24,000 nt of DNA from Candidatus Caldarchaeum subterraneum. GTDB lineage: Archaea; Thermoproteota; Nitrososphaeria_A; Caldarchaeales; Caldarchaeaceae. The position numbers and the translations under genes are program-made. The stretch spans positions 1 through 24,000 of the forward strand of contig DQVM01000076.1 of assembly GCA_015661775.1 (NCBI GenBank), in the 5' to 3' direction. Position 1 is the first letter of the stretch. Every line of letters begins with the position of its first letter. Of this stretch, positions 1 to 22,555 are shown in pieces. A model generated the notes under the pieces. That model saw only the letters and a list, made by a program, of their open reading frames with translations, made no database searches and had not been told where the DNA came from.

Positions 1-264
1 ATAAACTCCAAGAGTCAACGGGTATGGTGATTTAGTTATGTATCTCTGCATGTTTCGGGTAGCTAGTGGGGATACTTGTATAAGATGGGGAGAGGTATTG
101 TTGATGGATAGCATCTTCTTTGCTATAGTATTCGTTATCCATCCGCTGTAGTTTGTCAGGGTTATTGGATTAGATACTCTAATTCGGTACTTGAAGCGTA
201 GCAGCAACGGCCTATTACCGGCTCTCTCTAAGATAGCTGGCCTGAAGTTATTTAACCCATCCAT
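1..264 (-). CDS. Hypothetical protein, N-terminal 88 codons only (continues past the left edge); weak resemblance to the N-terminus of Cas6/RAMP-type proteins
   Basis: My own minus-strand translation. This phase is open from 318 to position 1, while the other two minus phases each carry about ten stops over the same AT-rich stretch. The first start is ATG at 264-262. A TTTTATGA TATA-like box at 300-293 lies about 30 nt upstream, which fits a leaderless transcript. The product begins MDGLNNFRPAILERAGNRPLLLRFKYRIRVSNPITLTNYSGWITNTIAKKMLSINNTSPHLIQVSPLATRNMQRYITKSPYPLTLGVY. It is missing from the supplied ORF track because the edge truncates it. Confidence 0.45.
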   Translation of the reverse strand, partial: MDGLNNFRPAILERAGNRPLLLRFKYRIRVSNPITLTNYSGWITNTIAKKMLSINNTSPHLIQVSPLATRNMQRYITKSPYPLTLGVY

Positions 265-421
265 TATTATATCATAGAATAGTGAATCTCTATCATAAAA
301 GTGTGGAGATTGAGAGGGTTATACGATGATTAGAGAAGGGGATTTATATCCGGCTTGTTGACATGATAGGCTTATCAGAAAAATAAATAAACATTTACTG
401 TGTTTTATTGTTTTAGGTATA
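265..421. promoter_or_regulatory. Divergent promoter region between the left-edge ORF and the CARF gene
   Basis: A 157-nt AT-rich spacer. The TATA-like box TTTTATGA (minus strand, 300-293) is about 30 nt from ATG 264. The box AAATAAATAAA (plus strand, 381-391) is about 35 nt from ATG 422. No Shine-Dalgarno motif precedes either start, so both transcripts are probably leaderless. Confidence 0.4.
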
Positions 422-1384
422 ATGGGCGTATACCACTTAGCCGGTTTAGGCACTTCACCCGGTGCAGTATCCTCACCATTAACAATAATTTACTTACTTC
501 TGAAAGCTGCTGAGGATGGTGATGATAGAGCAAGGGAATTCTTCAAACACTCCGGGGAGCAGGGGCAAGAACTAAAAGGTGCTCCAGAGTATCTGATTTT
601 GTTTACCAGCGAGCAGATACTAAATGAGCAGGCAAAATCCCAGCAGGAGATAAGGAGTAAAATTTTTCCTAACAAAAAATTCGGTACTTCACCATTAAAA
701 GTTCTGGTAAACTATCTGAAGAACTTGACGGATAAACTGGAGCTGGATAACATATACAACAACCTCTGGATAAAAGGAATATACGCAATAAAGGTTGAAT
801 ACATGGATTTTCAGGACTGCTATCGGAAGATTAATACTGTGTTAAACGCGTGTAGGGATAAGGAGTGTTGGGTGAACGTTCAGGCGGGTTCTAACCAAAT
901 AACCTCCTCACTAGCAATCTCAGCCTCCATAAACCTAGTTGCGGGAAAATACTACTATGTAAAGCAGACTGATACAAGATATCTAGACCCACCCAACCTA
1001 ACTCCATCAGTATTAAACACTCCTAGGAAATACGTCAATGAAATACTAAACTCATGGGGAGAGTTAACCATATTCGGCCTAGGAATTAATAGGATAATAG
1101 AGGATGTTGAACAACTCTTTAAAAATAAAGAAAAGGTGAATCGCTCAGAAATAAGAAATATACTCGACGAGCATGGGTTAAGCGGGGTAGCCCTAAACAA
1201 GCTGAGGCCATACCTAATCATGGAAGGGGAGACGGTGAGTAAATCGGAGAGATTCAACGAACTAAAATACCTAGTAGAGACAAAGATATCCGGCATCAAC
1301 AACGTATCTGAGATGCAGAGGAAAATGAAAGAACATGGAATGCTCTATGAGATAGGCCCTGAGACTGGCGAAGTGGAGAGCTAG
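422..1384 (+). CDS. CARF-domain protein (cyclic-oligoadenylate-sensor-type Rossmann-like domain) with a roughly 130-aa C-terminal helical domain, either Csa3-like wHTH or a minimal HEPN
   Basis: A 320-aa ORF with an ATG start. The N-terminal strand-loop HLAGLGTSPGAVSSPL and the later VNVQAGSNQITSSLAISA correspond to the two ligand-binding loops of Csm6/Csx1-type CARF domains (the LGTSPE and T-G-T-K-x-M-S type motifs). In the C-terminus, VNRSEIRNILDEHGLSGVALNKLRPYLIMEGETVSKS reads as a helix-turn-helix plus wing. It also contains R245-N-I-L-D-E-H251-G, which satisfies the HEPN R-x(4-6)-H pattern. Confidence 0.6.
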   Translation: MGVYHLAGLGTSPGAVSSPLTIIYLLLKAAEDGDDRAREFFKHSGEQGQELKGAPEYLILFTSEQILNEQAKSQQEIRSKIFPNKKFGTSPLKVLVNYLKNLTDKLELDNIYNNLWIKGIYAIKVEYMDFQDCYRKINTVLNACRDKECWVNVQAGSNQITSSLAISASINLVAGKYYYVKQTDTRYLDPPNLTPSVLNTPRKYVNEILNSWGELTIFGLGINRIIEDVEQLFKNKEKVNRSEIRNILDEHGLSGVALNKLRPYLIMEGETVSKSERFNELKYLVETKISGINNVSEMQRKMKEHGMLYEIGPETGEVES

Positions 1385-1488
1385 TTTTAGAAGCTATTCA
1401 TATCCTAGGGGTATCTATAAATCCTATGCTCCTGCTTAGAATATTCAATACGCGTATTTTCCTCTGTTCTTATTCTGGGACTTGAGGT

Positions 1489-1914
1489 TTAGGTTAGTAG
1501 GTTTTCGTGTAGGGTTAGCCTGCCTTCGTCGTTTTCTGCTATCAGCTGGTGTTTCTTTAGGGTTGATATCGCTTGCTTGAACGGGCCGCTATCTTTTGAG
1601 TATCTGAGCTGGGCCGCTATCTCCGCTCTTGTAAACTGTAGAGGATGTTTTTCAGCAAGCAACTTAAGTATTCTGCCTTCGCATGTTCTTCCTATCTTCC
1701 TAATCCAATCCTCCACCAGCTCCATGTTAGGCTTGGAGCCTGCTTTAGTTCTTTGAAAAGCCTGTATGGCCTGGTTTCTGCGTGTATCTTGGAGGGCTGC
1801 TGTAAGCTCCGCCAGTCTCCTGTCAAGCACATTAGCCAGTTTTTCTATTGCTTGGGCCAGTTTAGCAACTTCACTGGCTTCTGCTTCTTGCTGGTTTTCG
1901 TTTAGCTGTTCCAT
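1489..1914 (-). CDS. Small coiled-coil plus winged-helix DNA-binding protein (putative transcription regulator), 141 aa
   Basis: I prefer the internal ATG at 1914-1912 (MEQLNENQQEAE...). It is preceded by GGAGGAGGG 6-14 nt upstream. The 57-aa extension back to 2085 is low-complexity and runs through the AT-rich promoter and into the pstS start. The N-terminal half (AKLAQAIEKLANVLDRRLAELTAALQD) has heptad-like helical character. The C-terminal GRILKLLAEKHPLQFTRAEIAAQLRYSKDSGPFKQAISTLKKHQLIAENDEGRLTLHENL has a typical wHTH pattern. Confidence 0.6.
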   Translation of the reverse strand: MEQLNENQQEAEASEVAKLAQAIEKLANVLDRRLAELTAALQDTRRNQAIQAFQRTKAGSKPNMELVEDWIRKIGRTCEGRILKLLAEKHPLQFTRAEIAAQLRYSKDSGPFKQAISTLKKHQLIAENDEGRLTLHENLLT

Positions 1915-2057
1915 ACTTCTCCCTCCTCCTTTATAACCGTGTGAGTGAATTCTTTTTAGTTTTCCCTGACCGGGGTTTTCTATATAGTGTATTTTGGTCA
2001 ATATATAAAAAATTGTTAATGTATATATTATCAGGTTAATCCAGTCCGTTGAATGGG
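1915..2057. promoter_or_regulatory. Divergent promoter region between the wHTH gene and pstS
   Basis: A 143-nt spacer with several TATA-like boxes: ATATATAAAAAA at 2002-2013, GTATATATTA at 2021-2030 about 30 nt before ATG 2058, and on the minus strand ACTAAAAAGAA about 40 nt before ATG 1914. Confidence 0.4.
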
Positions 2058-3101
2058 ATGAGAAGGAATAAAGCCCTTTCGTCAACCACCGTAGCTGCGT
2101 CGCTGTTGGTTTTGACGGTGGGGTTTATCTCTGGTTATATGTTAGCTACCTCCCTCTCGCAGGGTCAGGTAGTTACTATTACTGTAACTGCCCAGACACC
2201 TGACGGCTTTACCGTAACACCCCAAGAGCTTAGGGGGGATATCATAATAGACGGCTCCAGCACGGTGTATCCCATAACCGAGGCGGTGGCTGAGGCGTTT
2301 ATGGAGCTGTTCCCTGATGTTAGCGTAACTGTTGGTATTTCAGGTACGGGGGGAGGGTTTAAACGCTTCGTAACAGGCGAGAGTGACGTAAACGACGCTT
2401 CAAGGAGGATAGAGGAGCTGGAGATGGAGATAGCGAGGGAAAACGGCGTTGAGTGGATTGAGATCCCCATAGCTATAGATGGGTTGACCGTTGCTGTTAA
2501 CATGGCTAACGACTGGGTGGATTGCCTCACTATTGAGGAGCTTAAAGCTATATGGGAGCCGGGTAGCGGGGTGAGGAGGTGGAGTGATGTTAGGCCTGAG
2601 TGGCCTGATGCTGAGATAAGGCTCTACGGCCCCGGACCAGACTCCGGGACATTTGACTTCTTCACAGCTAAGGTTGTAGGCAGGGAGAAGGCTAGTAGAA
2701 CAGATTACGTAGCCAGCGAAGATGATAATGTGCTGGTCGCTGGATTGGAGGCTGAGAAATACGCATTAGGCTATTTCGGATACGCATACTACGTTGAGAA
2801 TAGAGATAGGATAAGAGCAGTCCCAATAAACGCAGACGGCGAATGCGTAGAGCCGAGCGACGAGACGATAAAGAGCTTCCAGTATCCTCTCTCCAGGCCC
2901 ATCTTCATATACGTTAACAAGGAGTATTTTGAGCAGAAACCCCACCTGCAGAGGTTCGTCTATTTTTATTTAGAAAAAGCTGAAGGGTTTGTTGAGCAGG
3001 TAGGCTACACGCCGTTCTCAGAGCTATACTACAGGAGGGCCGTGGCATTAATCAAGGAGGGTGTGTACGACAGGTTACTGGATATAGCTTTAATACCGTA
3101 G
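2058..3101 (+). CDS. pstS: Phosphate ABC transporter substrate-binding protein PstS, membrane-anchored
   Basis: PstS/PBP-like motifs are present: IIIDGSSTVYPITEAVAEAF, GISGTGGGFKRF, and NDASRRI followed by IPIAIDGLTVAVN. The N-terminus has a hydrophobic anchor (ALSSTTVAASLLVLTVGFISGYML) and a Thr/Val-rich stalk (VVTITVTAQTPDGFTVTPQ). I prefer ATG at 2058 over the ORF-track start at 2049, which is a TTG. Confidence 0.9.
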   Translation: MRRNKALSSTTVAASLLVLTVGFISGYMLATSLSQGQVVTITVTAQTPDGFTVTPQELRGDIIIDGSSTVYPITEAVAEAFMELFPDVSVTVGISGTGGGFKRFVTGESDVNDASRRIEELEMEIARENGVEWIEIPIAIDGLTVAVNMANDWVDCLTIEELKAIWEPGSGVRRWSDVRPEWPDAEIRLYGPGPDSGTFDFFTAKVVGREKASRTDYVASEDDNVLVAGLEAEKYALGYFGYAYYVENRDRIRAVPINADGECVEPSDETIKSFQYPLSRPIFIYVNKEYFEQKPHLQRFVYFYLEKAEGFVEQVGYTPFSELYYRRAVALIKEGVYDRLLDIALIP

Positions 3102-3141
3102 CCTATGACAGCCTCCGGGAGTTTCGTGGAGGCGGGAGTAT

Positions 3142-4026
3142 ATGCAGGTTCCTAGGGCTGAGAAGATTGTGGGCTCAGTCCTTCTGGCGGCCTCCCTCCT
3201 AACGATAATAGCATTAATACTGATAATAGAGACCCTAGTCTACGAGTCCCTTTTCTTCTTCTCCAGAGTCTCTATCTTCGAGTTTCTCTTCGGCGTGGAG
3301 TGGACGGTTTTGTTTCTTGATAAGAAGTTCGGCGTTGTTCCTCTTTTAGCGGGTACGTTTCTTACCTCCTCCATAGCTATTCTGCTGGCTTCAACGATAG
3401 GGCTTGGCTCCGCTGTTTACTTAAGCGAATACGCCTCTCCTAGGGTGCGTTCAGTAGTTAAGCCGCTTCTTGAGATATTGGCTGGTATACCTACCGTGGT
3501 CTACGGCTACTTCGCCATATACACTATAACGCCGCTTCTGAAGTCTAGTGTTTTCCCTGACATTAGTTTCTACAACGCGTTATCGGCTGGAATAGCTATG
3601 GGGGTTATGATAATTCCTACGGTAGCGTCGTTGAGCGAGGACTCTTTATACGCCGTCCCTGAGACGTTAAAACACGCAGCCTACTCCCTAGGTGCTAAGA
3701 AGATACAGGTAGTCTTTAGGGTCGTCATACCAGCGGCCCTCTCCGGTATCGTGGCTTCGTTCATTCTTGGGCTAGCGCGGGCGGTTGGGGAGACGATGAT
3801 AGTAGCAATAGCTGCTGGTTTCAGGCCCGTCCTCACCCTAAACCCACTAGAAGCTATACAAACCATGACCGCTTTCATAGCTCAGGTATCTACAGGCGAG
3901 GCGCCTCACGGGACGGTGGAGTACCAGTCTATATTTGCTGTTGGCCTCTATCTTTTCACGTTGGTTATGCTGCTTAACCTGATTGGGAACTACGTCGTCA
4001 GACGCTGGGGGGTTAGGGTATCATGA
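3142..4026 (+). CDS. pstC: Phosphate ABC transporter permease PstC
   Basis: A polytopic membrane protein with an EAA-type loop (LKHAAYSLGAKKIQVVFRVVIPAALSG) and a GGAGG-like motif upstream of the ATG. It sits between pstS and pstA. Its stop overlaps the pstA start as ATGA. Confidence 0.9.
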   Translation: MQVPRAEKIVGSVLLAASLLTIIALILIIETLVYESLFFFSRVSIFEFLFGVEWTVLFLDKKFGVVPLLAGTFLTSSIAILLASTIGLGSAVYLSEYASPRVRSVVKPLLEILAGIPTVVYGYFAIYTITPLLKSSVFPDISFYNALSAGIAMGVMIIPTVASLSEDSLYAVPETLKHAAYSLGAKKIQVVFRVVIPAALSGIVASFILGLARAVGETMIVAIAAGFRPVLTLNPLEAIQTMTAFIAQVSTGEAPHGTVEYQSIFAVGLYLFTLVMLLNLIGNYVVRRWGVRVS

Positions 4027-6526: not shown

Positions 6527-7891
6527 ATGAGTAGCGATTCCTACTATGAGGAGTTTTCTGCTAAGACCAGGGGATCGGCTGAGCTTTACGGCAAGGCGGT
6601 AAACTTAACTCCTTATGGGGTGCATAGTAATTGGCGTATCTTCGAGCCTTATCCGTTGTTTATGAAGCGCGGAAGGGGGTCTAGGATTTGGGATGTGGAT
6701 GGCAACGAGTATATCGACTATAACATGGCCTTCGGCGCTCTTGGGATTGGGCATTCGCATCCTGTTTTGGTTGAGGAGATGAAGAGGGTTATAGAGGATG
6801 GGACTATCTTCGGCTTTGAGGCTGAGAACTCCGTTAAGGTTGCTGAGGTACTTACAAGTAGGTATGGTTATGATATGGTGCGGTTCTCCACCACCGGGTT
6901 GGAGGCCACCCTCCTAGCTGTAAGGCTTGCTAGGGCCTTCACAGGCAGGAAGAAGATTCTAAAGTTCGAAGGCTGTTTCCACGGGACGCATGAGCCTCTA
7001 ATGGTAAGCGTGAAGCCCAGCGTATATAGAGCAGGCCATGTAAAGACCCCCAACCCTGTTCCAGCAAGCCTAGGAATGCCTGAGGAGTTCACCAATCTAG
7101 TTATAGCAGCGCCTTACGGCGACCTAGAGGCTACTGAGAAGATTATGCAGAGACAAGGTAACGAGGTGGCTGGGATTATATTGGAGCCTATAGCTATGAA
7201 CATGGGAGTGGTCATACCCAGCCTAGGTTTCCTACGGGGGTTAAGAGACCTAGCCGACGAGTATAACTGCGTCCTGATATTCGACGAGGTTAAGACGAGT
7301 GGAAAGTTCTACAGGGGTGTTCAGGAGTGGTGTGGGGTGAGGGGTGATATAATGGTTGTAGCCAAGTCGATAGCAGGAGGCTACCCCTTCTCAGCCGTCT
7401 TATCCAGAAGGGAGATATTCGAGGTCGTAGGCCCCAACAAAACAGCCCACGGAGGAACTTTCAACTCCAACCCCCTCTCAGTAACAGCATCATACATAAC
7501 CCTAACCAAGATACTCACGGAGGAGAACCTTAAACACTCCCAGCAGCTAAGCAGAGAACTAGCGAAGGGATACGATGATATACTAAGCGACGCTGGGCTG
7601 GAGTATAACATATCCCACATAGCAACAAGCGGCACGATATACTTCACCAGTAGAAAAATAAACAACTGGAGGGAATTTGTCAAGTACAACAACTTCGGCA
7701 GGTGGTATGCATGGGTTATGGCTATGCTGAGAAGAGGAATAATACCACAGGCTCTTGGCTACGATGAGCAGTGGACGGTCTCAATCCAACATAGCAGGGA
7801 GGATATCGACAAGACGCTTGAAGCCATGAAAGAGGCGGTTAAGGAAATTAAAGACATTTCCAAACAACTTGCAGTAGAGGAGGTTCTCTAG
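6527..7891 (+). CDS. Class-III PLP-dependent aminotransferase, glutamate-1-semialdehyde aminomutase (HemL)-like subgroup, substrate unknown
   Basis: The layout parallels HemL: RGRGSRIWDVDGNEYIDY, STTGLEATLLAVRLARAFTGR, LIFDEVKTSGKF (HemL has DEVMTGFR), AKSIAGGYP (HemL has GKIIGGG, holding the catalytic Lys), and GGTFNSNP. ATG start, with the TATA-like box TTAAATAATTT at 6484-6494. Confidence 0.8.
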   Translation: MSSDSYYEEFSAKTRGSAELYGKAVNLTPYGVHSNWRIFEPYPLFMKRGRGSRIWDVDGNEYIDYNMAFGALGIGHSHPVLVEEMKRVIEDGTIFGFEAENSVKVAEVLTSRYGYDMVRFSTTGLEATLLAVRLARAFTGRKKILKFEGCFHGTHEPLMVSVKPSVYRAGHVKTPNPVPASLGMPEEFTNLVIAAPYGDLEATEKIMQRQGNEVAGIILEPIAMNMGVVIPSLGFLRGLRDLADEYNCVLIFDEVKTSGKFYRGVQEWCGVRGDIMVVAKSIAGGYPFSAVLSRREIFEVVGPNKTAHGGTFNSNPLSVTASYITLTKILTEENLKHSQQLSRELAKGYDDILSDAGLEYNISHIATSGTIYFTSRKINNWREFVKYNNFGRWYAWVMAMLRRGIIPQALGYDEQWTVSIQHSREDIDKTLEAMKEAVKEIKDISKQLAVEEVL

Positions 7892-7945
7892 CTTATCATC
7901 TCTTAAAATATTTATGAAAACCCCATCCTTACTGGGTTGGAGAGA
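7892..7945 (+). promoter_or_regulatory. Possible internal promoter and ribosome-binding region upstream of the potA-like gene
   Basis: The TATA-like box TTAAAATATTTAT at 7903-7915 lies about 35 nt before ATG 7946. GGAG sits 4-7 nt upstream of that ATG. Read-through from the aminotransferase gene cannot be excluded. Confidence 0.35.
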
Positions 7946-9022
7946 ATGGAAGCCGAGGTTGAGATTGAGAAGGTGAAAAAGAGCTTCGGCCCTATTAAGG
8001 CTCTGAAAGAAGTGTCTCTAACTATTAGGAAGAACGAGTTCTTCTCACTCCTCGGCCCAAGCGGCTGCGGTAAGACGACGCTCCTGAGAATCATAGCTGG
8101 CCTTGAGTTCCCCGACGAGGGGGTAGTAAGGCTCGGCGGCAGGGTTGTTAACGACGTACCACCCCACAAAAGGGGAGTTGGCCTAGTCTTCCAAGGAACA
8201 GCAGTATTCCCCCACATGACAGTTTACGATAACATAGCATTCGGCCTCAAAATGCGGGGATACAAGAAAGACGAGATAGATGAGAAAATACATAAGATGC
8301 TTGAGATAATGAACATGCCCTTCGAGATTTACGCCAAGAAAAGAGTTGACCAGCTAAGCGGCGGGGAGAGGCAGAGGGTTGAGATAGCCCGCTCGCTGAT
8401 TATAGAGCCTAACGTCCTCCTCCTAGACGAGCCTCTGGGGCCGCTTGACCTGAAGATAAGGCAGAAGATGCAGATTGAGCTGAAGCGCCTCCAGAAGCGG
8501 GTTGGAACCACCTTCATCTACGTTACCCACGACCAGGGAGAGGCCCTCACCATGTCTGATAGGATAGCAGTTATGCAGAGGGGCGAGGTTCAGCAGGTGG
8601 GGACACCTGAGGAGATTTACCTAAGGCCAGCAAACAGGTTTGTAGCTGAATTTATAGGTGAGACGAACCTAATCGAGGGACGGGTAAGCGGCGATAACAC
8701 CTTCGCAGCAGACGGCCTGCGGTCAGTTATTCTATCCAGCTCCTCGAACCCTGAAAACATTATGGGAGATGCGGTTCTATCTATAAGGCCTGAGAAAATA
8801 CTAGTAGGAGACGAGAGCGCTGGGTTGGTTAATAGGTTTGAGGGTGTTGTGGAGGAGAAGATTTACATGGGGGCATACGCTGTTCTGAAGGTAAGTATAG
8901 ATGATAAGATGGCGTTAACTGTTCAGGTTCAGCCTGCCGAGAAGGTTAATGGCATAAGGGTTGGTCAGCGGATTCAAGTAGGCTGGTCGCCTGAAGACGC
9001 TACAGTTGTTAAACCAACGTGA
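7946..9022 (+). CDS. potA: PotA-type (spermidine/putrescine family) ABC transporter ATP-binding protein with a C-terminal TOBE/OB regulatory domain
   Basis: Walker A GPSGCGKTT, Q-loop VFQGTAVFPHMTVYDNIAFGL, signature LSGGERQRVEIARSL, Walker B LLLDEPLGPLD, and VTHDQGEA. The C-terminal 120 aa (FVAEFIGETNLIEG...SIRPEKI) is typical of PotA/MalK-type regulatory domains. I prefer ATG at 7946; the track start at 7937 is a TTG. Confidence 0.85.
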   Translation: MEAEVEIEKVKKSFGPIKALKEVSLTIRKNEFFSLLGPSGCGKTTLLRIIAGLEFPDEGVVRLGGRVVNDVPPHKRGVGLVFQGTAVFPHMTVYDNIAFGLKMRGYKKDEIDEKIHKMLEIMNMPFEIYAKKRVDQLSGGERQRVEIARSLIIEPNVLLLDEPLGPLDLKIRQKMQIELKRLQKRVGTTFIYVTHDQGEALTMSDRIAVMQRGEVQQVGTPEEIYLRPANRFVAEFIGETNLIEGRVSGDNTFAADGLRSVILSSSSNPENIMGDAVLSIRPEKILVGDESAGLVNRFEGVVEEKIYMGAYAVLKVSIDDKMALTVQVQPAEKVNGIRVGQRIQVGWSPEDATVVKPT

Positions 9023-9026
9023 TATC

Positions 9027-9908
9027 ATGAGCGAGAAGATCTTAGAAAAGATAAGGCACCGACGGAAAGCCCAGCTTCTCCTCATACTATCTCTCCCCCT
9101 CGCATTTTACATAATCTACTTCTTAATCCCGTTCATCGCAGCTGTAGGGGTTAGCGTGGGTTTAATCCTGCCTAGGGAGGTGCAGCTCCAGAGAGGGGAG
9201 GTAATAACGCTACGCTACTACATGGACGCTATAAACCCGATTTTCCTGAAAGTTCTTGGGAAATCCCTCTACATAGCGGTAGCTACCACGGTTCTCTGCC
9301 TAGTTTTAGGATACCCCCTCGCCTACTACGTAGCATTCAAAGGCGGAAGATACAGAAACGTCCTAATACTCTTGGTTATAGTTCCTTTCTGGGTTACCTT
9401 CCTCCTGAGAGCATACGCCATGCTCTCGCTCCTCAGCCCTGAGGGTGTTTTAAACAGCTTCTTGATAAACACGGGGATAATCTCAAAGCCCCTTTTCCTG
9501 ATTTACAACGAGAACGCGGTTCTACTAGGCATGGTATACGGTTATCTGCCTTTCACAGTTCTCCCCCTATATGCTTCGCTGGAGAAGATAAGCAGAGTAT
9601 ACGTAGAGGCTGCTAAAGTTCTCGGAGCAAGCCCAGTAAGAGCATTCCTACACGTAACGCTACCGCTGAGTAAACCCGGCCTAGTCGCTGGAACCCTGCT
9701 TACGTTCATACCATCCGCGGGGGAGTTCATAATACCTGAGTTCCTAGGAGGGCCCAACGAGTTCTTCGTAGGTAACATGATATACTCCGCTTTCATAGAG
9801 GCCCAGAACTGGAACTGGGGAGCCTCGATAGCTACGATATACATAGCAATAGTCATAGCTGGTATAATGCTCTATCTCAAGTATGTTGGGGAGGAGTTGA
9901 GAATATGA
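9027..9908 (+). CDS. potB: PotB-type ABC transporter permease
   Basis: A six-helix-type membrane protein with the EAA loop VEAAKVLGASPVRAFLHVTLPLSKPG. ATG at 9027 lies 4 nt after the potA stop; the track start at 9006 is a TTG inside potA. Confidence 0.85.
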   Translation: MSEKILEKIRHRRKAQLLLILSLPLAFYIIYFLIPFIAAVGVSVGLILPREVQLQRGEVITLRYYMDAINPIFLKVLGKSLYIAVATTVLCLVLGYPLAYYVAFKGGRYRNVLILLVIVPFWVTFLLRAYAMLSLLSPEGVLNSFLINTGIISKPLFLIYNENAVLLGMVYGYLPFTVLPLYASLEKISRVYVEAAKVLGASPVRAFLHVTLPLSKPGLVAGTLLTFIPSAGEFIIPEFLGGPNEFFVGNMIYSAFIEAQNWNWGASIATIYIAIVIAGIMLYLKYVGEELRI

Positions 9909-10681
9909 GGAGGCTAGGCGACCGGATTCTACTTGCTTACACTATAATGTTGTTCGTCTTCCTATACACGCCTATAGTATCTATGGCGTTGGTGTCCTTC
10001 AACTCAGGCCGGGGGATTCTAAAATGGGAGAGCTTTACGCTGGAGTGGTATACCAAAGCCTTGAGCAACGAGAAGATTCTTAACGCTCTGTTCAACAGCG
10101 CTTGGGTGGCTGTAACCGTTACATTACTAGCTATCGCCATGGCGTTGCTGGCAGCTATAGCTGTTGGACGGTATCAGTTTAGGTTTAAACTGGCCCTTAA
10201 CACAGGCCTGTTTCTAGCTATAGTGGTACCTGAAATAGTGGAGGCCCTAACGCTTATGCTCTTCTTCCTCTGGATAGGCTCACCGTTCGGAGCATCAACC
10301 GTAATAATAGGGCATCTAGTTTGGTTCCCCATAGTATACGTGGTTATAAGAGCCCGTATGGCCGGGATGCCTAGGGTATACGAGGAGGCTGCTAGGGTTC
10401 TAGGAGCCAACGAGTTGCAAACCTTTTTCAAGATAACACTCCCCCTCCTACTCCCGGGTATCATAACAGGAGGCCTGCTTATCTTCACATGGTCATGGGA
10501 CAGCTTCATAAAAACCCAGTTCACACGAGGCCCGGGATTTGAGACTCTCCCAATCTACATATGGAACTCAGTGGGTGCGAGAGGAAGGGGATTATCCCCT
10601 GAAGTCAACGCCATAGCTACATTATCGTTGATAATCTCGATAGCTTTGGCTTATCTCTACACTAGGTTCAGAGGAAGATAG
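9905..10681 (+). CDS. potC: PotC-type ABC transporter permease
   Basis: EAA loop EEAARVLGANELQTFFKITLPLLLPG. Its start overlaps the preceding permease gene as ATGA. Confidence 0.85.
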   Translation: MRRLGDRILLAYTIMLFVFLYTPIVSMALVSFNSGRGILKWESFTLEWYTKALSNEKILNALFNSAWVAVTVTLLAIAMALLAAIAVGRYQFRFKLALNTGLFLAIVVPEIVEALTLMLFFLWIGSPFGASTVIIGHLVWFPIVYVVIRARMAGMPRVYEEAARVLGANELQTFFKITLPLLLPGIITGGLLIFTWSWDSFIKTQFTRGPGFETLPIYIWNSVGARGRGLSPEVNAIATLSLIISIALAYLYTRFRGR

Positions 10682-10691
10682 GAGGATATTC

Positions 10692-10703
10692 TCGTATTTT
10701 TTA
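10692..10703 (+). terminator. Oligo-T run, candidate archaeal terminator of the aminotransferase-potABC unit
   Basis: A T6 run at 10697-10702 lies within the 25-nt convergent spacer between the potC stop (10681) and the potD stop (10707). Confidence 0.35.
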
Positions 10704-10706
10704 GGG

Positions 10707-11939
10707 TTAGGCCACCAGTATCTCCTGCCACGCGCGGGTTAGCATCTCACGTTCTTCAGGCGTTCTACCACGCCACGCCTCCAGCTTAGCCATAATCTCA
10801 GGCGGCGGGTATATACTCTCGTCGTTCTGCATCTCCTCAGGTAGGAGTTCGAAAGTTATCTTATTAGGCGTCATCAAGCCGTTGTATATCGTGAGCGCAA
10901 GCTGTGATGTTGGTTCGAACATGTAGTTTATCCAAGCGTAGGCCGCCTCTATGTTCTTAGCAGACTTGGGGATGATCATGCAGTCAGTCCATATCTCGCA
11001 TCCCTCCTTCGGCACTATATACTCTACGTTATTCTCAGAGCTCTGGTAAACCCATGTCTCGCTGATCCAGAAACGCCCCTCGTCAAGCCCCGGCTGGTAC
11101 TCTGAAGCAGCTGCATAAGCTGCTAGGAAGGGCTTCTGCTGTATCATAACCTCCTTAGCTGCTTCTATGTTTTCTGGCGAAAGGTCGTTTATCGACTTCC
11201 CCAACACTCCTTTTATCACGTTGGGTATCGTCTCTACACCCCCGGGTATCATGGTGGCTGTCTTCACGCCATCCTTGGGGCTGTATTTTGGTAGGAAGTA
11301 ATCAAAGTCGAAGAGAGAGTCCAACCAGCCTGTAGGCCAGTCTTCCTCCGCTATCTTATCCATTCTAAATGATATGCCGGAAGTGCCGCTCTGGTATGGT
11401 ACTGTGAATGTTCTACCGGGGTCGTATGCGGGGTTCTTAAGCTCATCGAAGACGAAGGCTTCGTAGTTGGGGATCTTGCTGTAGTCTAGCTTCGTAACGT
11501 ACCTATCATAGTCTTCTAACGTTATAGTCCCTCCGGTTATTACGGTTACGTCGTAGGGCATGTTGCCTGTAAGCAGCTTGGCCAGAACCTCGTCGCTGGT
11601 TTCGAAGGTGTCGTAGATTATCTTGACGCCTGTCCTCTCCTCGAAGAGGGTTAGCAGCTGCTCCGGGATGTATTCCGACCAGTTGAATATCCTCAGTTCT
11701 TTATCCGGTATCTCATACTGGGCCAGCTTCTCCTTTAACTCCTGTATCTCGGCCTCTAGTTTTGATATCGTTTCTCCTGCGAGCTTCTCCGCCTCCTTCT
11801 GCTGTTGTTCTGCAAGTTTTTCAAGCTCAGCTCTAGCGGAGTTTAGGCCTGCCATGTAACCGCCCGCCACTCCAGCTATGCCCGCAGCTACCGCAGCTCC
11901 AACAACCTTAAAGAAGGAACGCCGGTTTCCGTTCGTCAT
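10707..11939 (-). CDS. potD: PotD/PotF-type polyamine-binding protein with a twin-arginine-like signal/anchor and a coiled-coil stalk
   Basis: The core matches the PotD pattern: LRIFNWSEYIPEQLLTLFEERTGVKIIYDTFETSDEVLAKL, YDVTVITG, and TVPYQSGTSGISF. The N-terminus is MTNGNRRSFFKVVGAAVAAGIAGVAGG, an RRxFFK motif plus a hydrophobic segment. It is followed by the helical ELEKLAEQQQKEAEKLAGETISKLEAEIQELKEKLAQYE. Confidence 0.85.
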   Translation of the reverse strand: MTNGNRRSFFKVVGAAVAAGIAGVAGGYMAGLNSARAELEKLAEQQQKEAEKLAGETISKLEAEIQELKEKLAQYEIPDKELRIFNWSEYIPEQLLTLFEERTGVKIIYDTFETSDEVLAKLLTGNMPYDVTVITGGTITLEDYDRYVTKLDYSKIPNYEAFVFDELKNPAYDPGRTFTVPYQSGTSGISFRMDKIAEEDWPTGWLDSLFDFDYFLPKYSPKDGVKTATMIPGGVETIPNVIKGVLGKSINDLSPENIEAAKEVMIQQKPFLAAYAAASEYQPGLDEGRFWISETWVYQSSENNVEYIVPKEGCEIWTDCMIIPKSAKNIEAAYAWINYMFEPTSQLALTIYNGLMTPNKITFELLPEEMQNDESIYPPPEIMAKLEAWRGRTPEEREMLTRAWQEILVA

Positions 11940-11991
11940 ATTTTATACTTCAGCCCATAGATGGTATATAAGCATTTTAAGAAAAAAGGAT
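11940..11991 (-). promoter_or_regulatory. Terminator of the upstream dehydrogenase gene plus the promoter of the potD-like gene
   Basis: On the minus strand, a T6 run (plus-strand 11982-11987) lies just after the stop at 11992. GCTTATATACC (plus-strand 11961-11973) lies about 28 nt before ATG 11939, which fits a leaderless transcript. Confidence 0.4.
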
Positions 11992-13167
11992 CTAGTTTAA
12001 AACCTCTTTACGGTCTTCTGTTATTTTTATTCCATGTTTGCCTATTTCGTTGAATAGGTTCTCTGGGTTTATGCATACCTCCGGTGGGACAACCCCTTTT
12101 TCCTTAATCTCGCCGTCTGCTATCATTATTGATGCTGTTGAAGAAGGGAGTCCCACGCCTATCTGGGCGCTGCTCATTCTCCACTCAGGCTTGGGGGGTA
12201 TCGTTATGTCGTAGATTTTTCTTACAGGCTTTCCGAGCCTTTCACCTTCTATTATTACTCGTGTTATCTCCCAATCGTTGGGGGTTACGTCTTCAGGGTA
12301 TCCTACCCACCCTTTCTTATCTAACATTGTTAGGAGGAATTTCCTAGGGTTTATTTTGGTTGAGTTGATTTCTATATCCTCAGATTCGGCAAACCCTATG
12401 TCTGCCAGCATTTTGATGAAGAGCAGGTCTGGGCTTCCTTCCATCCAGTCGCATCTCCTAAGCCCTTTATCTCTGAAGCTCCGTGGGAGCGTGGCTATCT
12501 CCGAGTGTATGGTAACGTAGGTATCCATACGCCCTATCGGTTCTGGGAAATCCACGGTCTCGCATCTTGATAAAGCAGGTATGGTCTTCAGCTCTCCATT
12601 CTCGTAAATAACCGCGTCCATAACCATCTCATCGAATAAAGTCTGTAGAGACCAAGTAACAACAAACGGCGGAGCACCTTCTGTAAAGTCCCTAGAACCA
12701 TCCCGTATAAGAACTGAGAACATCTTATCAAGGTAATCAGCAGCGTGCCGTGCTACAACATTCGTTACACCCGGCTGAGCTCCCATACCTATGACCGCCA
12801 CCAACCCAGCTGACTTGAAGAGTTTATCCAGCTCAAGCTGCTTTAGCGTAACGTGATATAAACCCCCATGATCCACGTAGTTAACCCTGGCCTTTAACGC
12901 AGCCTGCATAACTGGTATATTGAAGTAATACTGCACCGCGTTTATGACTACGTCAAAACCTCTTAGAAGCTCTGCGGTCTTCTCAACATCTGTAACGTCA
13001 ACTTGAGCAAACGTTAGTTTTCCGCTCTTTATTTTCTTAGCTACCCTATCTAGGGCTTTCCTGTTTATATCTCCTACGAGTATTTCGGAGACCTTCTTGT
13101 TTTCAACTAGGTTTCTTACAGCGGCTTGGCCTGTTAACCCTGCTCCTCCTAGAACAGCTATACGCAA
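11992..13167 (-). CDS. Saccharopine dehydrogenase-like NAD(P)-dependent oxidoreductase, carboxy(nor)spermidine dehydrogenase-like architecture, paralog 1
   Basis: Starts with the Rossmann motif MRIAVLGGAGLTGQAAV. The family-typical blocks follow in order: VINAV, NYVD, GMGAQPGVTNVVARHAA, SLQTLFDEM, VDFPEPIG, YVTIHSEIATLP, MLADIGF, and GVVPPEV. Length is 391 aa. The TTG start is forced, because the two codons upstream read TAG-GGT. GGTG lies 9 nt upstream. Confidence 0.75.
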   Translation of the reverse strand: MRIAVLGGAGLTGQAAVRNLVENKKVSEILVGDINRKALDRVAKKIKSGKLTFAQVDVTDVEKTAELLRGFDVVINAVQYYFNIPVMQAALKARVNYVDHGGLYHVTLKQLELDKLFKSAGLVAVIGMGAQPGVTNVVARHAADYLDKMFSVLIRDGSRDFTEGAPPFVVTWSLQTLFDEMVMDAVIYENGELKTIPALSRCETVDFPEPIGRMDTYVTIHSEIATLPRSFRDKGLRRCDWMEGSPDLLFIKMLADIGFAESEDIEINSTKINPRKFLLTMLDKKGWVGYPEDVTPNDWEITRVIIEGERLGKPVRKIYDITIPPKPEWRMSSAQIGVGLPSSTASIMIADGEIKEKGVVPPEVCINPENLFNEIGKHGIKITEDRKEVLN

Positions 13168-13307
13168 ACCCTACACCAAGCCGGTTAATTTTAAGGTGTA
13201 TTCTATAAAACTTTCCTCATACTTGGTGGATTAAGGTTTATAGCAACTCTGCAGCGATGGATAGGTGGGTGTTAACAAGAGGTATGCAACGTAGCGATTC
13301 TGCTGAG
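13168..13307. promoter_or_regulatory. Divergent promoter region between dehydrogenase paralog 1 and the SpeH-like gene
   Basis: TATA-like boxes are present on both strands: AAGGTTTATAGC at 13233-13244 on the plus strand, and TTTTATAG / CTTAAAATTAA on the minus strand. The plus-strand box implies a transcription start downstream of the ATG at 13257, which supports the 13308 start. Confidence 0.35.
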
Positions 13308-13661
13308 ATGAAAATTGTGGGTAAGCATGTTTATGCCAACCTCTACGACTGCGACCCTTGGGTTATAGATGACGAGGAGAGGCTGGTGGGAATTGTCAAA
13401 AGAACAGCCGAGATAACCAACTCAAAGCTTATTCAAGTTCTCTCATGGAGGTTTGGCGGAGAAAAAGGCGGAGTATCTGCAATAGCCTTGATAAACGAAA
13501 GCCACATAGCAATACATACATGGAAAGCCTACAACTACGCGACAGTGGATATCTACACCTGCGGAACCCACACAGACCCAGAAAAAGGTTTAGAATACAT
13601 AATCTCACAGCTTAAACCCGTAAAAACAGTAAAACACGCGATAAACAGGTCTCTAACATAA
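13308..13661 (+). CDS. speH: Pyruvoyl-dependent S-adenosylmethionine decarboxylase-family proenzyme (small SpeH/SpeD type); the substrate could be AdoMet, arginine, or something else
   Basis: MKIVGKHVYANLYDCD...GVSAIALINESHIAIHTWKAYNYATVDIYTCG matches the small prokaryotic AdoMetDC fold. The self-cleavage Glu-Ser (Ser codon AGC at 13500-13502) falls at residue 65 when counted from the ATG at 13308. This matches the position known from bacterial and archaeal homologs. The 17-aa extension from 13257 has no counterpart in the family. Confidence 0.8.
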   Translation: MKIVGKHVYANLYDCDPWVIDDEERLVGIVKRTAEITNSKLIQVLSWRFGGEKGGVSAIALINESHIAIHTWKAYNYATVDIYTCGTHTDPEKGLEYIISQLKPVKTVKHAINRSLT

Positions 13662-13960
13662 AACACCTAAAAGACAGAGAATAAAGATGTGTGGAACATA
13701 GATAACGTGTTATAGGCTTAAAAGGGTTTGAAGAGAGAGTATTATCCACGCATATTGCTTCTAGAAGAGATAAATACAAGCTTTAGAATCTAGAGTATAG
13801 CGGCTGAATGGCCTGATGTAAGGGCCATGGCCGTTTATTGACGTGGGGCTGGGAGGCTGTTAGAGGAGGATTCCAATTCGGATAAAATCAACAACCTCTA
13901 CTCTCGGTCTTTCTGGCTTCCGTTAGTAGATGCAGTATCGTCTAGAGGTGAGTATAGTCT

Positions 13961-15133
13961 TTGAAGATACTAGTTCTTGGTGTTGGAGCTGTAGGTGAGG
14001 TAATAGTTAAGCACCTCACCGATAATGGTAGGATATCACTTACCGTGGCCGATGTAGACGAGGCTAGACTCCGTAGGATAAAACGTAAGGTAAAAGAGAG
14101 GAAGCTAAGAACTGAGAAGATAAACATGGGCGATGCTGAGAGGCTTGAAGAGATTATCAAGGACCATGAACTGCTGGTTAACGCAGCTACACCCGACATA
14201 AACCTGATGCTGATGAACTCCTGCTTAAAACACGGCGTTAACTACATAGACCTAGCCAGCGATGAGATAGATGAACAACTCTCTTTAGATAGGAAATACA
14301 AGAGCAAAGAGATAATGGCTATAATCTGCCTAGGCGAAGACCCCGGTCTTTCAAACATCTACGCCAGATACGCAGCTGACAGGCTGGATAAAGTTCATGA
14401 GATAAAGATAAGGGATGGCGAGGTTTCAAAAAGCAGGAAATACCCCCTGGTGGCTTTATTCTCCCCCGAGGTATTCTTCGACGAGATTCTATCACCCTCC
14501 TACATATACGTTGATGGACGTTATAAGAAACTATCTCCGTTCAGCGGGTATGAGCTGTATGAGTTTCCAGAGCCTTTAGGTAGGCAGCCAGTTTACTCAG
14601 TGGCCCATGAGGAGGTCTTCACACTACCTAAGTTCATCAAGAAGGGGGTTAGGTATGTTGACTTCAAGCTGTCGTTATCGGATGAGCTTATACAAGCTAT
14701 AAAGCTCCTTAGGCGTATAGGCTTGTTGAGGGCCCGTAAGGTTCCTGTGAAGGGTACGAAAGTGGCTCCGAAGGATGTCTTCTTCGCTCTCATGCCCAAG
14801 CCATCTGAGGTTTCTAGGTATATAGAGGGGCATGCGGCGTTGGTTGTGGAGGTTACTGGAGAGTCGGAGAAGAGGGAGGTAACCTACACGATGTACACGT
14901 TGATGAGCCACGAGGAGGCGTATAGGATGTTCAGAGCCAACGCAACAGCATACCTAACAGGTACTGTCCCTGCCGTTATAGCAGGAATGATAGCTAAGGG
15001 CAAGATAGAGGGCGAGGGCGTTATGGTCCCTGAACAGCTTGAGCCTGAGCCTATAATAGAGGAGATAGCTGAGAAGAAGATAGTAAGCTACTTAGAAACC
15101 TCTGAAGAAGGCGTGATGCCCATGGCAGAATAG
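13961..15133 (+). CDS. Saccharopine dehydrogenase-like NAD(P)-dependent oxidoreductase, carboxy(nor)spermidine dehydrogenase-like architecture, paralog 2
   Basis: Starts with the Rossmann motif MKILVLGVGAVGEVIVKHL. The family blocks follow: LVNAATP, NYIDLA, LGEDPGLSNIYARYAA, FSPEVFFDEI, YEFPEPLG, YSVAHEEVFTLPKF, LLRRIGLL, TGTVPAVIAGMIAKG, and GVMVPEQLEPEP. Length is 390 aa. The TTG start is forced, because the upstream in-frame codons read TAG-TCT. GAGGTGA lies 10 nt upstream. Confidence 0.75.
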   Translation: MKILVLGVGAVGEVIVKHLTDNGRISLTVADVDEARLRRIKRKVKERKLRTEKINMGDAERLEEIIKDHELLVNAATPDINLMLMNSCLKHGVNYIDLASDEIDEQLSLDRKYKSKEIMAIICLGEDPGLSNIYARYAADRLDKVHEIKIRDGEVSKSRKYPLVALFSPEVFFDEILSPSYIYVDGRYKKLSPFSGYELYEFPEPLGRQPVYSVAHEEVFTLPKFIKKGVRYVDFKLSLSDELIQAIKLLRRIGLLRARKVPVKGTKVAPKDVFFALMPKPSEVSRYIEGHAALVVEVTGESEKREVTYTMYTLMSHEEAYRMFRANATAYLTGTVPAVIAGMIAKGKIEGEGVMVPEQLEPEPIIEEIAEKKIVSYLETSEEGVMPMAE

Positions 15134-15356
15134 CCAAAAAGCATCCCATTTCTTCAGATAAGCTCCAAAAAGACCCCATTCATCATCTATACCGATAAGA
15201 AAAGCCCAGACGCCTTCTATCGTCAAAAACATGATTTAACGGTTAAACAGACCCTTATCTATTGAGATTCGCGTATTCTGTGCAGAGATTAACGAAGACC
15301 CTGTTTGAGATAGATTTTAGAAATGCTAGTTAGTAGGTGTAGTAGTGGTTTAAGAC

Positions 15357-16703
15357 ATGAGCACCGAGCTGAGGAAGACAGATTACTACCGGGAGCTTGC
15401 CCGTAAGGTTCTTCCAAAGAACTTCTGGACTGAAAAAACCATCACTGCTGACTTCATAGTTGAAAGAGCTTCCGGCTCCTACTTGATAGACGTAGAGGGA
15501 CGTAAGTTCATAGACCTAACAAGCCAATGGTCTACTAATAATGTGGGGAACGTGCATCCCGCGGTGCTTGAAGCAGCTATAGAGGGGCTTAAGCAGTATG
15601 GTTTTCTAATCTATGGATTGAATCTACATAAGCCGGTCTTCGAGCTTGCTCAGGAGCTTCTTAGAATAGCTCCTTCAAAGAAGCTAACCCGCGTGGCCCT
15701 TGAGCTCTCCGGGACGGGTGCTGTTGACGCTGCTGTTAAGTTTGCCTTAGGTGTTAAGAAGAGGCCTCATATCATAAGTTTCTTAGGCCAGTACCATGGC
15801 TATTATACCGGTACGTTAAACTACAGCCCTGAGAGCGCCGAGGCTAGGCGTTACTACGAGAGCTTCTTAGGAAGCGTCTCTATACTGCTCCCGTATCCCT
15901 ATGAATACAGAGCCCCCGCCGGTATGTCTGGTGAGGAGTGGGGAGGGTTTATAGTGGATTACATAGAGGATAACATACTCCGTTACCAAGCCGCAGCAGA
16001 TAGGATAGCCGCGATTCTCTTCGAGCCTATAGCATGTGAGGCCGGTGTCTGGATACCTCCTGACAGCTTCATCCACGGCCTGAGGAAGCTGGCGGATAAA
16101 TACGGCTGGTTTCTGGTAGCGGATGAGGTTATGACAGGTTTCGGCAGGACAGGGAGGTGGTTTGCGATAGAGCACTGGGGGATAGACGCTGAGCTGGTTC
16201 CACTCGGTAAGGGGATATGCGGGGGGATATTCCCCATAGCAGCTGTATACGGAAGCGAGGAGGCTATGGCTAGTGAGGTTATAGACTATGGAACGACATT
16301 CGGAGGCCATCCTGCAGGATGCCTAGCGGCGCTGGCTAACATCAAGGTTATGGAGCAGGAGAGGATAGTTGAACGCTCAGCCAAGCTGGGTGAGAAGGCC
16401 CTGAAACGAATCAAAGACTGGCCTGAGAGGTATGAGATAGTAGGCGACGTGAGGGGGAGGGGGCTCTTGATAGGCATAGAGTTCGTCAAGGATAAACGCC
16501 TCAAGACAAGAAACCCCGAATCCGCCAGAACAGTGTATATAGAGTCTATAAAACGCGGGGTAGTTCCGTTGATGGACAGCGGAGACTGGACGCTTAGAGT
16601 ACAGCCCCCGTTAACTATAGAGGAGGAGACCCTGATGCATTCTTTCGACGTCATAGAGGAGGCTGTGAAGATTGCTGAGAGAGAATTCAAACAATCCAGT
16701 TAG
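15357..16703 (+). CDS. Class-III PLP-dependent aminotransferase (4-aminobutyrate/ornithine/putrescine aminotransferase-like)
   Basis: LSGTGAVDAAVKFA, FLGQYHGYY, FEPIACEAGVWIPP, LVADEVMTGFGRTGRWFA, the catalytic-Lys block PLGKGICGG, and TTFGGHP. ATG start. Confidence 0.85.
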   Translation: MSTELRKTDYYRELARKVLPKNFWTEKTITADFIVERASGSYLIDVEGRKFIDLTSQWSTNNVGNVHPAVLEAAIEGLKQYGFLIYGLNLHKPVFELAQELLRIAPSKKLTRVALELSGTGAVDAAVKFALGVKKRPHIISFLGQYHGYYTGTLNYSPESAEARRYYESFLGSVSILLPYPYEYRAPAGMSGEEWGGFIVDYIEDNILRYQAAADRIAAILFEPIACEAGVWIPPDSFIHGLRKLADKYGWFLVADEVMTGFGRTGRWFAIEHWGIDAELVPLGKGICGGIFPIAAVYGSEEAMASEVIDYGTTFGGHPAGCLAALANIKVMEQERIVERSAKLGEKALKRIKDWPERYEIVGDVRGRGLLIGIEFVKDKRLKTRNPESARTVYIESIKRGVVPLMDSGDWTLRVQPPLTIEEETLMHSFDVIEEAVKIAEREFKQSS

Positions 16704-17503
16704 ATAATCTCCTCCAACAACCCCTTCCTATGCAGCAGGTAGATAATCAAGCTACCTACTATTACTATTATAGCCGACACCGCGTTCACTATAGGAAGCT
16801 TCTTGGGGTATCTTATGCTGCTCCAAACCCATATAGGGAAGGTAAGGTCGGAGCCTATCGTGAAGTAGGTTATGATGAAGTTGTCGAAGGACCAGATGAA
16901 GGTGATTAACGCTGCAGCCGCTACTGCTGGGAATATCTGGGGGAGCATTATTTTTCTGAAGACCTGCAGCTGGTCTGCTCCCAAGTCCATGGCGGCTTCG
17001 TTTAGTCTTATGTTGTAGGTTAGCAGCCTGGATCCCACTATTATGACTACTACGGGGATGCTGTACGTTAGGTGGCTGAGGACTACGGTTAGGAAGGAGA
17101 GCTCCATACCTACGGTTATGTAGAATATCAGGGAGGCTACTCCTATTAAGAGCCATGGGATTACAAAGGGAACCGCCATGAACATTATGAAGACATCCTT
17201 TTTCCTGCCTCGCAGCGATGCGAAGGTGAAGGCTGCTGGGAGGCCGAGCACCATAGCTGCAGCGGTTACAATACTAGCTATGATAAGCGAGTTCCCTAGG
17301 CTTCTGAAGAGAAACTCCTCCTCAAACATTGCCATATACCATCTTAGGCTAAACCCTGCGAAGGGGAAGCTGAAGAAGGCCTTAGCATGGAAGGAGAACA
17401 GGATTAGAAGAAATATGGGGAGGTATATTAGTAGGGAGACTACAGAGGCTGTGTAACCGCCTAGCAGCAGCTTGGCTATACTCCAGTTTTTCCTCACGCT
17501 CAT
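16700..17503 (-). CDS. PotC-type ABC transporter permease (system 2)
   Basis: EAA loop NEAAMDLGADQLQVFRKIMLPQIFPA. Its start overlaps the upstream permease gene as ATGA. Its stop codon overlaps the stop of the convergent aminotransferase gene. Confidence 0.85.
   Translation of the reverse strand: MSVRKNWSIAKLLLGGYTASVVSLLIYLPIFLLILFSFHAKAFFSFPFAGFSLRWYMAMFEEEFLFRSLGNSLIIASIVTAAAMVLGLPAAFTFASLRGRKKDVFIMFMAVPFVIPWLLIGVASLIFYITVGMELSFLTVVLSHLTYSIPVVVIIVGSRLLTYNIRLNEAAMDLGADQLQVFRKIMLPQIFPAVAAAALITFIWSFDNFIITYFTIGSDLTFPIWVWSSIRYPKKLPIVNAVSAIIVIVGSLIIYLLHRKGLLEEII
16867..16915. repeat. 49-nt perfect repeat shared with 21094-21142, inside the paralogous PotC-type permease genes
   Basis: aggttatgatgaagttgtcgaaggaccagatgaaggtgattaacgctgc is identical at both sites. 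Extending to 16854-16915 versus 21081-21142 adds only 2 mismatches. The flanks are diverged. Confidence 0.9.
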
Positions 17504-18390: not shown

Positions 18391-18399
18391 CTGACAAAG

Positions 18400-19473: not shown

Positions 19474-19484
19474 CAATACGCACG

Positions 19485-20732: not shown

Positions 20733-20911
20733 ATCTTCAACCTACAAAACCGATGAAAACAACGGTATAATTAAACTTTATTACAAACATAAAGAATCCA
20801 ACATTCTTTTCTTACTTTATTCCGACTCTAAATTAAGAAATTAAGGTGTTATTCCGTTATTTTCATCCTATTTCGATGGATTTTCCTATTTTACACCCTC
20901 TTTACCCCGGT
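20733..20911 (-). promoter_or_regulatory. Inter-operon spacer holding the terminator of system 3 and the promoter of system 2
   Basis: A 179-nt AT-rich spacer. On the minus strand, T-rich runs follow the stop at 20912. TTTAATTATA (plus-strand about 20763-20779) lies about 30-40 nt before ATG 20732. Confidence 0.4.
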
Positions 20912-22553: not shown

Positions 22554-22555
22554 GT

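Follow-up and report, generated by a model that had tools for sequence, protein, structure and literature searches.

A CARF–winged-helix protein of a type III CRISPR-linked family at a contig edge in Candidatus Caldarchaeum subterraneum

What does a CARF protein control when it stands beside housekeeping genes, with no CRISPR locus in sight? The question is raised by a gene at positions 422–1384 of a 24,000-nucleotide stretch of DNA from a metagenome-assembled genome (MAG) of Candidatus Caldarchaeum subterraneum (assembly GCA_015661775.1, contig DQVM01000076.1, here C33, forward strand); we refer to this whole stretch as the window. A preliminary description, made from the sequence alone, had called the product an orphan CARF protein whose short C-terminal half might be either a winged helix-turn-helix (wHTH) or a minimal HEPN nuclease, and had suggested a possibly undescribed variant. 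We are highly confident that it is a type III-linked CARF–wHTH protein. The best overall explanation, which we hold to be reasonably probable, is a type III-associated CARF–wHTH protein of the CARF3 clade, working as a Csa3-like switch. In practical terms the annotation is corrected to CARF–wHTH, not HEPN, and the gene probably marks the edge of a CRISPR island and is not an orphan. Little is known of how type III CRISPR signalling acts other than through nucleases; in a 2022 review, Csa3 is the one CARF effector without nuclease function that is listed as characterised by experiment (PMC9704534). A second CARF–wHTH lineage, situated in or at the end of cmr/csm operons and often beside csx3, would offer a tractable case for following cyclic oligoadenylate (cOA) signals into archaeal gene expression.

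The open reading frame (ORF) is a real gene with an ATG start and encodes 320 amino acids. Reading the window sequence confirms the three peptides that had been quoted for it, two of them as CARF loop signatures, at residues 5–16 (HLAGLGTSPGAV), 151–168 (VNVQAGSNQITSSLAISA) and 239–275 (VNRSEIRNILDEHGLSGVALNKLRPYLIMEGETVSKS), and finds R245, N246, H251 and G252 at the places claimed. The N-terminus MGVYH is kept in all close homologues and across the family alignment, which supports the start codon at 422. The product is a CARF protein: residues 1–304 align with positions 1–293 of the 298 in the PADLOC-DB profile PDLC01864 (‘CARF3--CARF’) at E 1.8e-65, 13 other CARF/Csx1 PADLOC profiles match besides this one, and the match to the PADLOC ‘Csx1’ cas profile PDLC01427 has E 2.7e-37. 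Pfam and NCBIfam returned nothing above threshold, with HFX_2341_N as the only, sub-threshold, Pfam entry. In a 41-member family alignment, to which all residue counts below refer, G8, G10 and G14 of motif I are invariant and position 12 is serine in 29 members; a GxS/T motif I has been implicated in CARF ring-nuclease catalysis (PMC8844856, PMC8643638). Motif II is anchored by E148, G156 and N158, each present in all 41. A family-specific insert (residues 32–56), possibly a lid over the ligand site, is conserved at A37, F40, F41, S44, G45, E46, G53 and E56 (FF-x2-SGE ... G-x2-E). The intact window ORF retains every invariant family residue.

Structure prediction agrees with the profile matches. 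An AlphaFold2 model built from 14 sequences (mean predicted local distance difference test (pLDDT) 89, predicted template modelling score 0.85) gives residues 1–185 a Rossmann-like fold, with pLDDT mostly 88–97 and about 75–81 in three blocks; the value is 75 at residues 41–50 of the insert. Searching the full model against the PDB with Foldseek retrieves CARF proteins only, 25 of them at E <= 1e-3. The top match is Sis0811 together with its orthologue Sso1393, a CARF+wHTH ring nuclease (E 5.7e-07, ~14% sequence identity), followed by Csm6, Csa3, Cami1, Cad1 and Sso2081, with Can2, Card1 and Cam1 also found; the Foldseek probability is 1.0 for Sis0811/Sso1393, Csm6 and Csa3. The profile match and the likeness of this model to solved CARF proteins bear out the CARF assignment made earlier. 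When the family profile is run against PDB sequences, Sis0811/Sso1393 again form the sole significant set (E 0.0058, a marginal 19 bits), with KEvWvN-x2-GGsNq aligned against KEVYIN-x2-AGLKp of Sis0811, which places N158 on the catalytic K169.

The C-terminal half is predicted to end in a winged helix and an extension. Residues 222–275 run through a helix (222–232), a strand (238–240), a second helix (241–250), a short third helix (256–260) and a hairpin (265–268/271–274), an alpha-beta-alpha-alpha-beta-beta order that corresponds to winged-helix topology in the model; the two helices and short strand of the extension that follows span residues 276–311. An independent model of residues 186–320 alone, from nine sequences, has a lower pLDDT (74) and the same order of elements. 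Nearly every fold match to residues 186–320 is a winged-helix protein or domain: O-methyltransferase N-terminal domains, the MarR-family repressors Hpr, OhrR, MepR, SarZ, HpaR and RovA, and also PadR, CggR, Sso10a, Cdc6 and the cullin WHB. Conservation in the C-terminal half is high only at W212, E243, L248, K260 and L261, of which K260, in the short helix, is kept in 38 of 41 members; the alignment contains no conserved residues of catalytic type in this half and no sign of an enzyme site.

The family is linked to type III loci, as seen in a related-locus search run with the 14-sequence alignment. A Cas10 palm2 match is present in 29 of the 32 genomes that hold a relative; cas10 lies on the same contig and within 15 kb of the gene in 23 of the 32, and in 22 of these 23 it is upstream on the same strand. 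In P0003 (52% identical, on an 814-kb contig), one of the two closest named relatives, the gene is 2.9 kb downstream of the end of a cas10-cmr2/RAMP operon (type III-B), with a split CARF-PIN gene and a degenerate four-repeat CRISPR array in between; in the other, P0005 (49% identical), a complete cmr operon (type III-B) lies 350 bp upstream of the gene in two assemblies. Further MAGs of the P0003 and P0005 species have a contig break just upstream of the gene (925 and 196 bp), the same situation as in the window (421 bp). Elsewhere the gene adjoins an N-terminal fragment of Cas10 (locus L011) or csm3-csm4-csm5 (locus L015), where it stands directly after csm5, the usual place of csm6. The gene csx3, of the Crn3 ring nuclease family, adjoins it directly in three distant lineages: Promethearchaeota (Asgard; L009:9463–9828), Thermococcus (L014:3616–3912) and Planctomycetota (L019:3559–3828). 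The order in the Thermococcus MAG is cmr2, cmr3, the CARF–wHTH gene, csx3, cmr4, and in the P. furiosus cmr locus csx1 occupies the matching slot.

In the window the arrangement stops short, since its base 1 is also base 1 of the contig: the left side is missing, there is nothing to read there, and the contig ends 421 bp upstream of the gene. The source MAG (1.49 Mb in 165 contigs, 88.6% complete) carries a CRISPR repeat, CTTTCAATTCCTTTTCGGATTCACG (reverse complement ending ...GGAATTGAAAG), at the ends of at least eight contigs, in tandem at those of C16, C26, C58, C71, C78, C133 and C139, with one copy at that of C160; such arrays are a major reason why this assembly is broken up. Bases 1–450 of the window do not contain this repeat. 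A 3.7-kb contig (C69, locus L002, ~84–3581) encodes cas4, cas1 and a canonical 231-amino acid csa3 (CARF+wHTH; PADLOC Csa3 profile PDLC01044, E 4.4e-18), so the organism has a standard Csa3 besides the window protein. Contig C83 carries at 19996–22273 an intact gene for a 476-amino acid CARF_m3-PIN protein (E 2.4e-82), a homologue of the split gene pair adjoining the CARF–wHTH gene in locus L003, and then a cas3'' HD nuclease gene (Cas3a2, E 2.7e-26), cut off by the right end of the contig. On its other side the CARF-PIN gene has what by eye resembles housekeeping DNA, with a gene for an S15-like ribosomal protein. The C83 and C33 ends share no terminal sequence overlap, and neither an exact 28-mer scan nor a protein scan of the metagenome contigs found anything extending C33 to the left. 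We infer that the right end of C83 and the left end of C33 are two borders of one CRISPR–Cas island whose interior is unassembled or unbinned. Because the contig starts at base 1 of the window, other contigs end in arrays, the left 2 kb of the window has a low G+C content (40–43% versus 46–52% elsewhere) and C83 holds CARF-PIN and cas3'' genes, the gene most likely forms the right-hand border of such an island, the rest of which was lost at the contig break. By analogy with its relatives, a type III locus would lie to its left in the source genome, and its orphan state is probably an assembly artefact.

How would such a protein work? On the mechanism that we propose, and to which as such we give a chance slightly short of even, the protein is a cOA-responsive, Csa3-like regulator or another output that binds nucleic acid. 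Two CARF domains would pair and form a pocket for cOA made by Cas10 upon finding target RNA; ligand binding would shift the two C-terminal winged-helix domains, the sole output module, and alter their binding to DNA, so that transcription of cas or defence genes would be switched as by Csa3. The ligand is probably cyclic tetra-adenylate (cA4), which the pairing with csx3 and the closest structures make the likelier candidate. The G-x-S motif I means that slow cleavage of its own ligand is possible, and the protein may have such a dual role, a sensor that slowly destroys its ligand, which is compatible with everything seen. The pairing with csx3, the cmr3–cmr4 slot, the place after csm5 and locus L010, where no other CARF protein occurs among the ORFs scanned around the gene (a scan covering part of the locus ORFs), argue that the family receives the signal and does not merely remove cOA. 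Beyond this, we suggest tentatively, and with some doubt, that the 310–350-amino acid PDLC01864 subfamily may be an output module in its own right, controlled by cOA in type III systems and different from both Csa3 and Crn1. This module would occupy the Csx1/Csm6 slot, often be paired with csx3 and give a transcriptional or nucleic-acid-binding response in place of collateral RNA cleavage, with the insert and the motif II Asn defining its handling of the ligand.

Three known groups of CARF proteins frame this proposal. Csa3, a cA4-binding CARF–wHTH transcription factor of type I-A loci (PDB 2WTE, 6W11, 6WXQ), has the same architecture, matches the model at Foldseek probability 1.0 and shares the PADLOC clade label ‘CARF3’; it binds cA4 and DNA and regulates cas and repair genes without ring-nuclease activity (PMC9704534, PMC8844856). 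The meaning of ‘CARF3’ is taken here from the proteins that match the profiles so named: the Csa3 of this MAG (on C69) and a Csa3/CasR-like protein of locus L012 each match at least 12 of them, plus Csa3 and CasR profiles. On this evidence ‘CARF3’ is the clade to which Csa3 belongs, and the window protein is a divergent, larger branch of it. It differs from Csa3 in length (320 versus 231 amino acids in the MAG's own copy), in the extension 276–320, absent from canonical Csa3, in a recognition-position helix that is shorter and less basic, and in its surroundings, the family being linked to type III effector operons and Csa3 to the adaptation genes cas1 and cas4. Sis0811/Sso1393 (long Crn1, ‘APE2256 family’; PDB 7PQ2, 3QYF) likewise have CARF and then wHTH, are the best structural match and share the motif II strand and loop (K-E-x-x-x-N...G) and the Ser of G-x-S. 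Unlike them, the window family has an invariant Asn (N158) in place of the catalytic Lys (K168/K169) and often adjoins csx3, and the window protein is ~45–50 amino acids longer owing to the insert and the extension. With the CARF+HEPN RNases Csx1/Csm6 the protein shares the CARF sensor, and some relatives take the operon place of csx1/csm6; it differs in having neither a HEPN domain nor a conserved R-x4-6-H.

Several observations weigh against a Csa3-like, DNA-binding regulator of type III systems. The window protein has no Csa3 or CasR profile among its PADLOC matches at E <= 1, and an hhalign comparison of the family with the MAG's own Csa3 is collinear and not significant (probability 3.9%). 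The Foldseek matches to residues 186–320 are weak (best E 0.023); the third helix of the wHTH is short, and the domain is weakly basic, its net charge being 0 in the window protein and +2 as the median of the family. The authors of the Sis0811 structure could not dock DNA onto its wHTH dimer (PMC8643638), and we found no conserved palindrome upstream of the gene in the family. The MAG yielded no cas10 or RAMP gene, whether with RAMP, Cmr2, Csm1 and Cas10-palm2 profiles or by tblastn with all cmr proteins of loci L003 and L005. In G034, a genome from the MAG's own archaeal family, PIN-domain and unrelated genes surround the copy and cas10 is on a different contig; detached copies thus exist.

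The other readings have to be weighed against this. In the window sequence alone R-N-I-L-D-E-H-G fits R-x(4-6)-H, which is what allowed a compact CARF plus mini-HEPN RNase of Csx1/Csm6 type with the dyad R245-x5-H251 to be considered, and PADLOC ‘Csx1’ profiles do match. These generic matches, though, cover the CARF part and linker, those to CARF_HEPN profiles are confined to CARF residues 118–168, and no HEPN domain appears among the matches in Pfam, NCBIfam, PADLOC or either Foldseek search (full model and residues 186–320). Position 245 is Arg in only five of 41 members (Glu in 13, Lys in 10) and position 251 is His in six; such variation is not to be expected of a catalytic dyad. R245 sits within helix 2 of the winged helix and H251 in the turn right after it, in a half that contains beta strands in the models and is not an all-helical fold. 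The distance or burial of the two residues is not decisive, because in real HEPN domains both catalytic residues likewise lie on one helix; it is on conservation and fold that the HEPN reading is rejected. The ambiguity of the preliminary description is therefore settled for the wHTH, by its topology in two models and the winged-helix matches, and the mini-HEPN enzyme, which sequence and predicted fold already refute, retains a practically negligible probability. A stand-alone ring nuclease of Crn1 type, which would degrade cA4 and end signalling while its wHTH appendage only modulates, has more to commend it and still seems unlikely. Sis0811/Sso1393 are both the top Foldseek match and the only PDB profile match, S12 is equivalent to the catalytic Ser of Sis0811 (PMC8643638), and N158 stands at the place of K169, whose role in TonCsm6 reportedly falls to an Asn, N135 (PMC8643638). 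The motif II Lys is nevertheless never present in the family, S12 is replaced in 12 of 41 members, and the profile match is marginal; a dedicated ring nuclease gene, csx3, adjoins in the three distant loci, and for a pure off-switch it would be odd that the scanned ORFs of L010 include no other CARF protein.

It could also be that the type III system has been lost and that the protein stands alone or is decaying, sensing another nucleotide or serving no current function. The MAG without a detected cas10 or RAMP gene and the G034 copy would fit, as would a homologue in Nitrosocaldus (L013:3107–4057, G007:C9) that is interrupted by an in-frame TGA after codon 7, comes from a genome lacking any Cas10 palm2 match and may itself be a decaying orphan copy. 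We consider this quite improbable for the window gene, whose ORF is intact with all invariant residues kept. The MAG is incomplete and breaks at CRISPR arrays, it keeps two further CARF proteins (Csa3 and CARF-PIN) that also need a source of cOA, and a type III operon lies directly upstream in both closest named relatives. The preliminary description had offered two possibilities, the last gene of a type III locus that continues beyond the left edge or a stand-alone sensor; the arrangement in relatives favours the former, with the reservation that no cas10 or RAMP gene was found in the protein's own MAG.

The type III-linked CARF–wHTH family is small and yet spread over several phyla. A word-index search gave 13 homologues, in Nitrososphaerota, Lokiarchaeota/Promethearchaeota and Thermococcus, and a profile search of 1.84 billion representatives gave 191 at E <= 1e-3, mostly of 310–350 amino acids. 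Among the kin of the source MAG the gene is sporadic (3 of 41 genomes, counting the window MAG), as is typical of defence accessory genes. The layout is not undescribed, as had been supposed, because a public defence database already has a profile of its own for the full-length arrangement (PDLC01864), besides the ‘Csx1’ profile PDLC01427; our literature search found no paper characterising this CARF–wHTH family. The protein is a new member of a catalogued, experimentally uncharacterised family, with four hallmarks: the insert 32–56, the invariant motif II Asn, the 45-amino acid C-terminal extension and a recurrent place in cmr/csm operons, often adjoining csx3. Coordinates are collected in Table 1.

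Table 1. Features of the CARF–wHTH gene and its product, in window coordinates
Feature	Position	Strand	Evidence
CARF–wHTH protein gene, CARF3-clade family (PADLOC PDLC01864)	422..1384	+	Profile, homologues, AlphaFold2 model, Foldseek
CARF domain, residues 1–185, Rossmann-like beta/alpha fold	422..976	+	AlphaFold2 model, Foldseek, PADLOC CARF profiles
CARF motif I, loop after strand 1, H-L-A-G-L-G-T-S-P-G-A-V, with G10-x-S12	434..469	+	Conservation
Conserved family-specific insert, residues 32–56	515..589	+	Conservation; part at lower model confidence
CARF motif II, after strand 4, K147-E148-x-W150-x-N152-x-x-(A/G)-G156-S-N158-Q-I-(N/T)	860..907	+	Conservation
Predicted winged helix-turn-helix, residues 222–275	1085..1246	+	DSSP, two independent models
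C-terminal extension, residues 276–320, two helices and a short strand	1247..1381	+	Models, family alignment
TATA-like A/T-rich box AAAAATAAATAAA	379..391	+	Read from sequence, ~30 nt 5' of the ATG

The TATA-like box suggests a putative promoter giving a leaderless or short-leader archaeal transcript; an alignment of upstream regions has an A/T-rich block at about the same place in relatives. An Rfam scan of bases 1–2100 gave no match. Left of the gene, a truncated ORF of 88 codons (1–264, minus strand) is divergent from it. The idea that this ORF is a Cas6 or RAMP gene is not supported, there being no Pfam or PADLOC match even at E 10 and no tblastn match in the cas loci compared; it may not be a gene.

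The loci of relatives contain further elements. Upstream of the homologous gene in a Ca. Calditenuaceae genome, at a distance of 530–760 bp, is a degenerate mini CRISPR array of four repeats (CTGATCCCAAAAAGGGAATTGAGAG, spacing 65–67; L003:9240–9471 = L007:164–395). A conserved protein of 350–400 amino acids is encoded after the last cmr gene in both Nitrososphaerota loci (L003:5882–7075 and L005:8600–9649); the L003 copy has no PADLOC match and neither copy has a precomputed Pfam match, and our guess from the C-terminus (GEFD...IFVDVT) would be a PD-(D/E)xK-like nuclease. Proteins of reversed order, wHTH and then CARF (PADLOC CARF_m5), are encoded at L005:10995–11720 (E 1.9e-13) and L009:549–1190 (E 5.9e-44); they accompany the CARF–wHTH gene in these two loci, and two different CARF/wHTH fusions thus occur together in some type III loci.

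To the right of the gene, our gene scan of the window agrees with the earlier account of a small wHTH-like protein followed by the pst operon, with no cas gene and no CRISPR repeat. The first neighbour (1489–1917, minus strand), which converges on the CARF gene and diverges from pstS, encodes 142 amino acids that begin with an acidic coiled coil and end in a wHTH-like part. No significant family match and no paralogue in the MAG were found for it, and it does not stand beside the CARF–wHTH gene in any relative examined. The pstS/C/A/B-phoU genes come next, and then genes for ABC transporters, aminotransferases, saccharopine dehydrogenases and an AdoMet decarboxylase. Positions 6527–24000 comprise three ABC-transporter sets with TOBE-domain ATPases and SBP_bac_8 binding proteins, two class-III aminotransferases, two saccharopine dehydrogenases and one AdoMet decarboxylase, and look like a neighbourhood of polyamine uptake and metabolism.

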